Program-made: the position numbers and the translations under genes
Shown: positions 24,275 through 25,890 of the stretch, in pieces
Position numbering within the stretch: the first letter of the stretch is position 1
Layout: each line of letters opens with the position of its first letter
The notes under the pieces: model-generated
What the model was told of the DNA's origin: nothing
Database searches by the model: none
The model's input: only the letters and a program-made list of their open reading frames with translations
Sequence record: PV714129.1
Origin: Escherichia phage Mizar
DNA length: 64,000 nucleotides
Reading direction: 5' to 3' (one strand)

Positions 24275-25174
24275 TTATTCCTCGATTACGACATCTTCGT
24301 ATTTAGGTATATTATACGGTGAAGAAATTAAAGCATTAAAGTAGATGAACTCACCAAGACCTGGATGGAATACTTCTTCAGGATTTTCGAAATATTGAAT
24401 CTTCGGACGTCCTTTAAGAATTTGATAGTACTCAGTTTTAGTTGGATTAAAAATTCGAATCAGCGCTTCTTCAGGATACTTATTTCTGTCGAAACTATTA
24501 TTTGGATCAGTTATATAAAGCGGTTGACCTAATTGAATTGCACATTCAACCACTTGTTCAAAACGATAGCACGGGTCACTAATTCGAAATGGATGAAAAA
24601 TACCATCTACATGAATAGGAGCCAAATCACCTACAAGACGCTGCATGATGGAAGGACGTATAACTTTCTGCGTTACGATAATCTTATTACCATCTGCACC
24701 GGCGTTAACCAGCACTTCCTTTTGACGTTCATTCAACACAGTAGTTTGAAGTGAACGATTAACAGACAACATGTCGGTTTTTAAGAATTCATCAATATAA
24801 AAACGTGGTTTATTAGGGTCTGCAGTGATATTGAAATTGAATTCTACGTCAAAAGCGCCATCATATCCAGTGATATCTGTGATTAGAAAATCACAATCAT
24901 AATAAGCAATTAATGAATCAACCACAAATTCATTTTCAGACCAGAAATATTTACGAGTGTTATACGCGTTATCTTTATACCATAATGGAACAAACTTAAA
25001 TTCTGGGAAAAGACGTTCACATTCTTTAATATCAGATGCATTACGTGGATATGTAATCACATCACCCGGATTAGCACGGTGCAAATGAAGTTGGAAGTTG
25101 CCATCCTTAAGGATAGCATACTGTCCAGTTTCATAAGACCGCATACTCAAGATAGGTACGCGGAAAATAGCCAT
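24275..25174 (-). CDS. hypothetical protein (299 aa) in the beta-gt position
   Basis: ORF with ATG overlapping the gene 42 stop (TAATG); no motif recognised; accessory relative to T4. Confidence 0.55.
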   Translation of the reverse strand: MAIFRVPILSMRSYETGQYAILKDGNFQLHLHRANPGDVITYPRNASDIKECERLFPEFKFVPLWYKDNAYNTRKYFWSENEFVVDSLIAYYDCDFLITDITGYDGAFDVEFNFNITADPNKPRFYIDEFLKTDMLSVNRSLQTTVLNERQKEVLVNAGADGNKIIVTQKVIRPSIMQRLVGDLAPIHVDGIFHPFRISDPCYRFEQVVECAIQLGQPLYITDPNNSFDRNKYPEEALIRIFNPTKTEYYQILKGRPKIQYFENPEEVFHPGLGEFIYFNALISSPYNIPKYEDVVIEE

Positions 25175-25890
25175 TAGTCAAGGAATCCTTTAACATAATC
25201 AAAATCACGTTCAAACACATGGGCACTTACCATGGTATGAGTATAATCACCAACTTCTACACCGCATTCGTTAGCGATATAATGAAGTAATTTTCCTTGG
25301 AGATAAAAATCCAACTGCATAACAACAGCACAGTTCTGAGAACGCATATGACAGTGGGTATAAAGCTTACCATCACGAATATAATAAGTCACTGAGTCAG
25401 TACATGGATATTCAAGCGTTTCGTCCGAATCAAGCAAAGCCTGATCAGAACTTTCTAGAATTTGGAACACAACTCTTCGAGAGTTAGGCTTCTCTTTAAG
25501 TTCTTTTAGAAGAGCTGGTAATTGGGCCGCAATGCGAGGACCATAGAAAGTGTTGAAGTTCGCCGGCAAAACATCTGATTTTGGTTTAGAAATAAATTTA
25601 GCGACATTAGGATATGCCTTAAACGCTTCTTCTGCATCAGTACCACCAGAAATCATAAACTTCCAGAAGTCTTCAGCATATTCATAAGAGATGCGGTTAA
25701 TACGTGGGTCGGTCATTTTGAATGATGATGGAGTGTCAACAACTACTGTCATAGACCCAATTTCATTACAACGTCCAATACGAGAATCAGTTACGAATTC
25801 CGGGTTTTCTAAAATTTCACGATTGACTGCTTTAAATGCGGTTTGAAAATCTGCGGCTTTGATATATTTCATTGTGTTATGTTTTCCCAT
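25174..25890 (-). CDS. 42: pyrimidine hydroxymethylase, thymidylate-synthase fold (dCMP hydroxymethylase-like)
   Basis: 238 aa; catalytic-Cys context EYPCTDS and MRSQNCAVVMQLDFY aligning to T4 gp42 MRSNDVVFGFRNDY, with Asp at the pyrimidine-specificity position; GAGGT SD. Confidence 0.75.
   Translation of the reverse strand: MGKHNTMKYIKAADFQTAFKAVNREILENPEFVTDSRIGRCNEIGSMTVVVDTPSSFKMTDPRINRISYEYAEDFWKFMISGGTDAEEAFKAYPNVAKFISKPKSDVLPANFNTFYGPRIAAQLPALLKELKEKPNSRRVVFQILESSDQALLDSDETLEYPCTDSVTYYIRDGKLYTHCHMRSQNCAVVMQLDFYLQGKLLHYIANECGVEVGDYTHTMVSAHVFERDFDYVKGFLD

Follow-up and report, generated by a model that had tools for sequence, protein, structure and literature searches.

A gene with a thymidylate synthase (TS) fold occupies, in Escherichia phage Mizar, the slot between uvsX and gene 43 that holds gene 42 in T4, and the question that it raises is which group its product adds to the pyrimidine. 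The stretch of DNA analysed here (64,000 nucleotides of sequence record PV714129.1; the window) contains this gene as its sole TS-family ORF. The initial annotation had read it as a diverged gene-42 hydroxymethylase and had taken the base of the phage DNA to be still hmC. The present analysis assigns it, with little room for doubt, as a flavin- and O2-dependent dCMP 5-hydroxylase (5hodCMP synthase), orthologous to RB69 gp48 and to AfhB of phage HY126, whose catalysis is known from near-identical proteins. This identity follows from the near-identical characterised enzymes, a diagnostic residue (Asn186), a clean split between two protein families and a matching gene order. The enzyme family has already been solved and published in 2025–2026; the finding is real and already explained.

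Fold and active-site residues

The ORF begins with an ATG, with a Shine-Dalgarno sequence (GAGG) 5 nt upstream. Its product matches the Pfam family Thymidylat_synt (PF00303; E-value of 2.4e-15, 56.9 bits against a cutoff of 24.3). The AF2 model, which was built with a 61-sequence alignment (a single-sequence AlphaFold model with a pLDDT of 35.6 was discarded), has a pLDDT of 87.5 and Foldseek TM-scores of 0.94 to PDB entry 9IQC and 0.85 to MilA, in keeping with the TS fold that had been proposed for this ORF.

The motifs PCTDS (residues 162–166) and LDFY (residues 193–196) contain Cys163 and Asp194, which align with the catalytic cysteine and the pyrimidine-specificity position, respectively, of E. 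coli ThyA and T4 gp42 (Table 1). Both had been singled out in the initial annotation, and both assignments hold. The two residues are, however, common ground: Cys and Asp at these positions are present in 120/120 of the closest homologues of the window protein and likewise of T4 gp42. The informative residue is Asn186, which the initial annotation overlooked. The D169N replacement (ThyA numbering) is published as diagnostic of 5hodCMP synthases (PMC13326640), and this position is Asn in all 120 closest homologues of the window protein and Asp in all 120 of T4 gp42. In the same numbering, the family of the window protein has N169, A/S80, V173 and E143, whereas the gp42 family has D169, W80, G173 and D143 (each 120/120). 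In the window protein itself, the folate-site residues D169, W80 and G173 of ThyA are replaced by N186, A97 and V190, the equivalence of W80 and A97 falling in the N-terminal half of the alignment, where conservation is poor. Read against T4 gp42, Cys148 and Asp179 thus have their counterparts (C163 and D194), whereas Asp171, Trp82 and Gly175 do not (N186, A97 and V190). [quoted passage not shown]

What can be read from the Asp at the N177 position is the pyrimidine that is bound and not the group that is added. The two outcomes named in the initial annotation as refuting it, an Asn as the specificity residue or a preference for dUMP, could therefore not expose the error concerning hmC.

The family assignments of Pfam and PHROG, and the name carried by many GenBank records, point to an ordinary thymidylate synthase converting dUMP to dTMP. 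E. coli ThyA indeed shares with the window protein the fold, the phosphate-binding Arg126/127/166, Ser167, Cys146 and His207. However, the window protein differs from it by N177 to D, D169 to N, W80 to A, G173 to V and Y209 to F, so that the specificity position is Asp rather than Asn and D169 and W80 are missing, as is the C-terminal folate-closing segment. All NCBIfam thymidylate synthase equivalog models score far below cutoff (best 68.5 bits against 174.55), and the near-identical characterised enzymes use dCMP; substrate, cofactor and product all differ from those of ThyA. We consider that this reading has practically no chance of being correct.

The nearest solved structure outside the family is the CMP 5-hydroxymethylase MilA (PDB entries 5JNH and 5B6D; Foldseek E-value of 4e-18, TMq of 0.85, 24% identity). 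Like the window protein, MilA is specific for a cytosine nucleotide; the N177 and L143 positions are both Asp in MilA. Unlike the window protein, it depends on folate, has a preference for the ribonucleotide, is about 320 residues long and belongs to antibiotic biosynthesis.

Table 1 Features of the window discussed in the text
Feature	Position	Strand	Basis
Second DNA arabinosyltransferase, putative RB69 gp3 equivalent, between rIIA and the topoisomerase gene	2526..3626	-	Position and role per PMC13326640 Table 1 and PMC13390438
gp56 dCTPase/dUTPase, supplies dCMP and removes dCTP	15608..16129	-	69.9% identical to T4 gp56
P-loop nucleotide kinase (RB69 gp45 equivalent), 182 aa	23725..24273	-	97.8% identical to RB69 gp45
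DNA arabinosyltransferase 1 (RB69 gp46:47 equivalent), 299 aa	24275..25174	-	Function from PMC13326640 Table 1
TS-fold dCMP 5-hydroxylase (5hodCMP synthase; RB69 gp48/HY126 AfhB orthologue), 238 aa	25174..25890	-	Pfam, identity, AF2 model
D194 codon (ThyA N177, T4 gp42 D179), cytosine-specificity residue	25309..25311	-	Alignments
N186 codon (ThyA D169, T4 gp42 D171), published diagnostic D169N	25333..25335	-	Alignments; PMC13326640
C163 codon TGT (ThyA C146, T4 gp42 C148), catalytic nucleophile	25402..25404	-	Alignments
E160 codon (ThyA L143, T4 gp42 D145), acidic, active-site entrance	25411..25413	-	Alignments
79-aa ORF (RB69 gp49, phrog_8601); slot holds chorismate mutase in sister genera	25933..26172	-	
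Peptidase-U32-family protein (RB69 gp50), 389 aa	26169..27338	-	Pfam PF01136, 42.2 bits; phrog_5757; 99.5% identical to RB69 gp50
HAD-like sugar phosphatase (RB69 gp51, AfhF equivalent)	27385..27786	-	99.2% identical to RB69 gp51; TIGR01689 capsule biosynthesis phosphatase, E 4e-13; role PMC13326640
Bifunctional sugar-1-phosphate nucleotidyltransferase/kinase (RB69 gp52:53, AfhE equivalent), single 561-aa ORF	27771..29456	-	Pfam NTP_transferase and kinase-like C-terminus, NCBIfam; role PMC13326640
Arabinose-5-phosphate isomerase (RB69 gp55 equivalent), 211 aa	29638..30273	-	97.4% identical to RB69 gp55; named so in JK45 and RB69

Comparison with T4 gp42

The window protein is 24.8% identical to T4 gp42 over 218 residues, while replication genes of the window are 62–85% identical to their T4 counterparts (gp41 85%, gp46 83%, Dda, gp39 and gp45 79% each, gp44 78%, gp61 73%, gp56 70%, uvsX 67% and gp43 62%). 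The greater divergence of this gene than of its neighbours, as claimed in the initial annotation, is thus borne out; its description of Dda, gp41 and gp45 as near-identical to T4 (they are 79–85% identical) was overstated. Other genes of the window are also strongly diverged from T4, namely modA and modB (about 30%), mrh (28%) and rIIA (46%).

Beyond this single pair, the window protein is 20–28% identical to all 120 members of the gp42 family, cross-family identities are 17–28%, and the two lists of 120 closest homologues are disjoint. T4 dCMP hydroxymethylase is absent from the 60 best phmmer and the 50 best Foldseek PDB matches of the window protein. By BLAST, the window protein is equidistant from gp42 and ThyA (53.5 and 57.4 bits), and a profile of its family slightly favours T4 gp42 (47.7 bits) over E. 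coli ThyA (33.4 bits).

The rival reading is that of a fast-evolving orthologue of gene 42 that still depends on methylene-THF and has 5-hydroxymethyl-dCMP as its product; the resulting hmC would be arabinosylated and not glucosylated. The window enzyme and T4 gp42 have in common the TS fold, the dCMP substrate, the catalytic Cys with a Thr after it, an Asp where ThyA has N177 and an acidic residue where it has L143, features that suit a hydroxymethylase. Their genes agree in locus and orientation, directly upstream of a DNA glycosyltransferase gene for which they supply the handle for DNA glycosylation. The profile scores lean the same way, 'dCMP hydroxymethylase' is a frequent name in GenBank records, and Thomas 2018 gave the base of such DNA as ara-hmC (PMC6024577). 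Against it stand D169, W80 and G173, kept in 120/120 members of the gp42 family and replaced in 120/120 of the window family, and an identity to gp42 that does not exceed the 29.6% seen with E. coli ThyA over the C-terminal half. The characterised relatives of the window protein weigh further against it.

Identity to characterised 5hodCMP synthases

The window protein is identical to RB69 gp48 (NP_861738.1) at 237 of 238 residues (99.6%), the sole difference, A107V, being located in a low-confidence loop. It is approximately 98% identical (E-value of 1.6e-161) to the HY126 AfhB of PDB entries 9IQC and 9IQU, from which it is separated by four substitutions (T17S, E31Q, E88K and V107A) that leave the signature positions unaffected. 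RB69 gp48 and HY126 AfhB (PDB entries 9IQC, 9IR2 and 9IQU) share with it the length, the signature C163/E160/N186/D194 and the gene neighbourhood. GenBank names for the window protein and its homologues vary between 'dCMP hydroxymethylase', 'thymidylate synthase' and 'hypothetical protein'.

RB69 gp48 yields 5hodC in vivo, incorporates 18O from 18O2 and binds an FMN-like cofactor; T4 gp42, assayed in the same way, yields 5hmdC (PMC13326640). An independent study of Mosigvirus NP agrees with this biochemistry; by NMR and MS, it places arabinose in RB69 and Mosigvirus DNA in a direct ether linkage to C5 of cytosine, and calls the earlier ara-hmC assignment erroneous (PMC13390438). The PDB entries approximately 98% identical to the window protein hold dCMP and FAD, their titles being 'Monooxygenase dependent on riboflavin with dCMP and FAD' (9IQC) and 'phage HY126 dCMP hydroxylase-AfhB with substrate dCMP' (9IQU).

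A protein one residue away from the window protein makes 5-hydroxy-dC with flavin and O2 (PMC13326640), and the base of RB69-type DNA is arabinosyl-5-hydroxycytosine, with the sugar ether-linked at C5 (PMC13390438). On both points, hydroxymethylase and hmC, the initial annotation has to be abandoned. It was right in expecting a cytosine nucleotide as substrate, as dCMP is used by the 98–99.6% identical characterised enzymes, and in expecting a downstream modification that differs from that of T4, which is arabinosylation and not glucosylation. A hydroxymethylase at this locus is, in our judgement, very improbable. T4 gp42 uses methylene-THF to add 5-CH2OH; the window enzyme, judging from the near-identical proteins, uses flavin and O2 to add 5-OH.

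Arabinosylation cluster and proposed chemistry

The hydroxylase gene sits within the published arabinosylation cluster. The order kinase, arabinosyltransferase, TS homologue, U32 protein, phosphatase, nucleotidyltransferase-kinase and isomerase is that of RB69 gp45–55, with proteins 97–100% identical, and is likewise present in LC53, KLB31, UP19 and Apostate. The TAA stop of the hydroxylase gene overlaps the ATG of the adjacent arabinosyltransferase gene by a shared A (TAATG). A Pfam scan of this arabinosyltransferase returned no match. RB69 gp45, the counterpart of the kinase, is structurally thymidylate-kinase-like (PMC13326640 Table 1). A scan of the cluster for promoters and terminators gave sites no more numerous than in shuffled sequence. 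The synteny with T4 suggests that the hydroxylase gene arose by replacement or by divergence in situ.

From what is published for the 98–99.6% identical proteins, the enzyme would take dCMP as substrate, with a flavin (FMN/FAD-type) in place of methylene-tetrahydrofolate, and would put an O2-derived oxygen at C5 to give 5hodCMP. By analogy with TS chemistry, Cys163 would attack C6 of dCMP; the activated C5 would then attack a flavin C4a-hydroperoxide, which reduced flavin and O2 would have formed as in flavin monooxygenases, and elimination of the thiol would, again by analogy, free 5hodCMP. The exact cofactor (FMN, FAD or riboflavin) and the Cys adduct are proposed from PDB titles, a secondary citation or analogy.

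As pieced together partly from publications and partly from gene content, 5hodCMP would be phosphorylated and then incorporated by the phage polymerase, while dCTP would be removed by the gp56 dCTPase. In DNA, the 5-OH would be the acceptor for two arabinosyltransferases, the adjacent, translationally coupled one and the second one near rIIA, with the donor, UDP-arabinose, probably made by the isomerase, kinase/nucleotidyltransferase and phosphatase encoded in the same cluster. The TS-fold gene of the window is the first step toward the arabinose-decorated cytosine of RB69-like phages.

A U32 neighbour and a possible second route

One small ORF separates the hydroxylase gene from an upstream gene for a peptidase-U32-family protein. 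In RNA, C and U are hydroxylated at C5 in a prephenate-dependent manner that requires the U32 proteins RlhA and TrhP and that operates in parallel to an O2-dependent enzyme (PMC6599085). By analogy, the TS-fold enzyme might be one of two routes to 5-hydroxycytosine, the U32 protein giving a prephenate-dependent, O2-independent hydroxylation under anaerobiosis; we regard this as unlikely. TrhO, TrhP and RlhA, which hydroxylate C5 of U34 in tRNA or C2501 in 23S rRNA, have the 5-hydroxypyrimidine outcome in common with the window enzyme, and TrhO is likewise O2-dependent; however, their folds (rhodanese and U32) are unrelated to it, and their substrates are RNA polymers rather than a free deoxynucleotide.

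The chief support for such a route is a conserved gene pair in seven sister genera, which have the same hydroxylase: their U32 gene is followed downstream by a chorismate mutase gene with a significant Pfam match. The two genes abut in at least five of these genera, and in Proteus PM2 the mutase gene is two genes away. This pairing is unmentioned in the accessible literature, and He et al. 2026 and Mahler et al. 2025 may already cover it. The U32 protein is at least 82% identical across 221 phage records; the cluster of the one Acinetobacter phage examined, the host of which is strictly aerobic, lacks it, and so does DLP3 as published. On the other hand, expression of gp48 and the dNMP kinase alone is enough for 5hodC (PMC13326640), E. 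coli Dhakavirus phages have lost or never had U32 and retain the TS homologue, and chorismate mutase is absent from the window. The 79-residue ORF between the two genes was considered as a diverged chorismate mutase and rejected (0.8 bits against an HMM of seven phage chorismate mutases; no Pfam match at E ≤ 10).

The features that link the phage U32 protein to the E. coli U32 proteins are limited to its Pfam family match, a conserved Glu and two aligned Cys. Its pairwise BLAST similarity to E. coli UbiU, UbiV, TrhP and RlhA is not significant, phmmer gave no PDB match, and C177 of TrhP, one of two Cys shown to be essential, is Tyr in the phage protein. Lee et al. propose a 'sugar or heterocycle reductase' for it. 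If the U32 route exists, the TS-fold gene would be conditionally redundant and not the sole source of 5-hydroxycytosine; the route would enable phages of the gut to maintain their DNA modification under anaerobic conditions and would mirror the dual pathway of TrhO (O2) and TrhP (U32, prephenate) for ho5U in tRNA.

Significance

The 5hodCMP synthase demonstrates that a folate enzyme scaffold has been turned into a flavin monooxygenase. In annotation, it is the D169 position that tells hydroxymethylases and hydroxylases apart; an Asp at N177 is unable to do so. The hydroxylase gene marks a switch in T-even-like DNA between an hmC-based form (T4) and a 5-hydroxycytosine-based form (RB69/Mosigvirus and many others), and a correct gene call predicts the defence systems (restriction, CRISPR and type IV) that a phage evades or triggers.

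Identity of the enzyme

The only thymidylate synthase (TS)-family ORF in the 64-kb window searched encodes an already characterised enzyme of known function, the flavin- and O2-dependent dCMP 5-hydroxylase (5hodCMP synthase). Its product matches RB69 gp48 at 237 of 238 residues and is approximately 98% identical to the proteins in PDB entries 9IQC, 9IR2 and 9IQU. Entries 9IQC, 'Monooxygenase dependent on riboflavin with dCMP and FAD', and 9IQU, 'phage HY126 dCMP hydroxylase-AfhB with substrate dCMP', were both released on 2025-07-16. A predicted model of the window protein (61-sequence alignment, pLDDT of 87.5) superposes on 9IQC with a TM-score of 0.94, and the Pfam domain Thymidylat_synt covers its C-terminal half (E-value of 2.4e-15).

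For these near-identical proteins, dCMP as substrate, a bound flavin, an O2-derived oxygen and 5hodCMP as product have been published. Expression of gp48 with the phage dNMP kinase yields 5hodC in E. coli DNA, and the same assay with T4 gp42 yields 5hmdC; the product oxygen derives from 18O2, and a flavin resembling FMN is released from purified gp48, which is yellow (PMC13326640). According to Lee et al. (NAR 2026, PMC13326640), the 5-hydroxycytosine of RB69 DNA bears one or two arabinose units, the sugar being joined to C5 through an ether bond; the Mosigvirus NP paper concurs and terms the earlier ara-hmC assignment erroneous (PMC13390438). The initial annotation read the ORF as a divergent gene-42 hydroxymethylase acting on cytosine, with hmC feeding a different downstream pathway. 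Its observation is confirmed and its interpretation supported in part: cytosine specificity and a different pathway stand, but hydroxymethylase and hmC do not, as near-identical RB69 gp48 yields 5hodC.

In public records this protein (matches of 98% identity or more) goes by the names dCMP hydroxymethylase, deoxycytidylate 5-hydroxymethyltransferase, thymidylate synthase, thyA and hypothetical protein, and one gives 'peptidase' under its match. None of the matching records seen uses the established hydroxylase function as a name.

Gene cluster and phage setting

The hydroxylase gene occupies the gene-42 slot, with uvsX and gene 43 on either side of that slot and a DNA glycosyltransferase gene immediately downstream of the hydroxylase, the same arrangement as in T4. 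Neighbouring genes complete the arabinosylation pathway, with roles assigned partly from published work. The hydroxylase stop and the arabinosyltransferase 1 start overlap in TAATG (25172..25176), and 4 nt (26169..26172) are shared by the U32 stop and the start of the 79-aa ORF; these overlaps suggest translational coupling along the cluster.

Hydroxylase gene, pathway genes and neighbouring features
Feature	Coordinates	Strand	Remarks
Second arabinosyltransferase	2526..3626	-	Role from published work
gp56 dCTPase	15608..16129	-	Pathway gene
gp40 head vertex chaperone	~22147..22461	-	
Kinase	23725..24273	-	Pathway gene
Arabinosyltransferase 1	24275..25174	-	Single intact ORF, 299 aa
TS-fold dCMP 5-hydroxylase	25174..25890	-	238 aa, ATG start, GAGG 5 nt upstream
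79-aa ORF	25933..26172	-	Between U32 gene and hydroxylase
U32-family gene	26169..27338	-	Pfam, 42 bits; between phosphatase and hydroxylase
HAD phosphatase	27385..27786	-	Pathway gene
Nucleotidyltransferase/kinase	27771..29456	-	Single intact ORF, 561 aa
Arabinose-5-phosphate isomerase	29638..30273	-	Pathway gene

The 8 kb around the hydroxylase gene (22000..30000) are approximately 98% identical in DNA to many RB69-like (Mosigvirus) coliphages. Protein identity to RB69 is 97–100% over roughly 20.7–35 kb of the window, except for gp40 (79%). This chaperone is 78.7% identical to RB69 gp40 and 82.6% to T4 gp40, whereas gp41 and uvsX on either side match RB69 at more than 99%; the pattern resembles a small patch of mosaicism. 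In the RB69 reference NC_004928, arabinosyltransferase 1 is divided into ORFs 46/47 and the nucleotidyltransferase/kinase into 52/53; a published statement attributes these splits to sequencing errors, and the intact window ORFs agree with it. Shigella phage JK45 (MK962757), classed as a Tequatrovirus, carries the whole arabinosylation cluster, and its uvsX-to-gene-43 region is 97.9% identical to the Mosigvirus-type window; it is possibly a misclassified record or a mosaic genome.

The U32-family gene

In every one of the 221 phage records that carry the Peptidase-U32-family protein (RB69 gp50 equivalent), its identity is 82% or more; the hydroxylase is less conserved, falling to approximately 67–72% in Acinetobacter and Shewanella phages. 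Seven other genera have, after U32, a gene whose score exceeds the Pfam CM_2 (chorismate mutase) threshold. It adjoins U32 in Winklervirus LC53, Kanagawavirus KLB31, Enterobacter MY742 and Shewanella Thanatos-2; the Yersinia (Tegunavirus fHe-Yen9-01) and Providencia (Gualtarvirus PSTRCR_127) phages have one small ORF in between, and Proteus phage PM2 (Bragavirus) has two genes there, including a homing endonuclease. In Thanatos-2 the pair is kept together and the hydroxylase lies elsewhere in the cluster. No mention of the pairing was found in the accessible literature.

Chorismate mutase produces prephenate. In RNA, C5 hydroxylation of C and U that depends on prephenate but not on O2 needs the U32 proteins RlhA and TrhP (PMC6599085), and the analogy suggests that the phage U32 protein may have a prephenate-dependent function like theirs. 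The same two points raise the idea that the U32 module might provide an O2-independent backup route to 5-hydroxycytosine, which we regard as improbable. Its distribution is in keeping with such a route in that the module was not found in the cluster of Acinetobacter phage Apostate, is absent from DLP3 as published, and Acinetobacter, with 57 hydroxylase records, is outside the ten commonest U32 genera; however, E. coli Dhakavirus likewise lacks it. Moreover, the chorismate mutase slot in the window holds the unrelated 79-aa ORF, and no chorismate mutase was found in the 64 kb. The phage protein resembles the E. coli U32 paralogues weakly and has Tyr at one of the two essential TrhP Cys positions, and gp48 alone is enough under aerobic conditions (PMC13326640).

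Diagnostic residues and relation to gene 42

At 24.8% identity to T4 gp42 over 218 aa, the hydroxylase is far more diverged than its replication neighbours, as first proposed, although calling the latter near-identical to T4 was an overstatement (62–85%: gp41 85, gp46 83, Dda 79, gp39 79, gp45 79, gp44 78, gp61 73, gp56 70, uvsX 67, gp43 62). Divergence from T4 does not by itself single out this protein, because modA/modB (~30% identity), mrh (28%) and rIIA (46%), at 12152..12757, 13803..14264 and 16..2220, are equally or nearly as diverged.

The protein is roughly equidistant from gp42 (53.5 bits) and ThyA (57.4 bits), and its family profile scores gp42 slightly higher (47.7 versus 33.4 bits). 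T4 dCMP hydroxymethylase is absent from its top sequence and structure matches, and the nearest solved structures outside the hydroxylase family are those of the CMP hydroxymethylase MilA. The hydroxylase is best described as a separate TS-superfamily branch at a conserved locus.

When the protein is aligned to T4 gp42 and E. coli ThyA (numbering verified on the K-12 sequence), C163 corresponds to ThyA C146 (T4 C148), E160 to L143 (D145) and N186 to D169 (D171). Asn at the D169 position has been proposed as a 5hodCMP synthase signature (Lee et al., PMC13326640). The motifs PCTDS (residues 162–166) and LDFY (residues 193–196) are present as annotated, and D194 aligns with ThyA N177 (T4 D179), the cytosine-specificity position; Asp here tells which pyrimidine is bound, not which group is added.

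Two sets of 120 nearest homologues, one for the window protein (53–99% identity) and one for T4 gp42 (57–96%), were aligned together with ThyA; the sets have no sequence in common and show 17–28% cross-family identity. Cys at 146 and Asp at 177 are invariant in both families (120/120). The gp42 family has D169, W80, G173 and Y209 (each 120/120), whereas the hydroxylase family has N169 and V173 (each 120/120), A or S at 80 and mostly F209. These substitutions systematically replace the pterin-holding residues of TS, which fits a changed cofactor. The Cys, Asp and Glu are conserved and the folate site is replaced. In the predicted mechanism, Cys163 would add to C6 of dCMP and C5 would attack a flavin hydroperoxide, after which the thiol would be eliminated. 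The residue at the D169 position can serve as a rule for annotating such genes.
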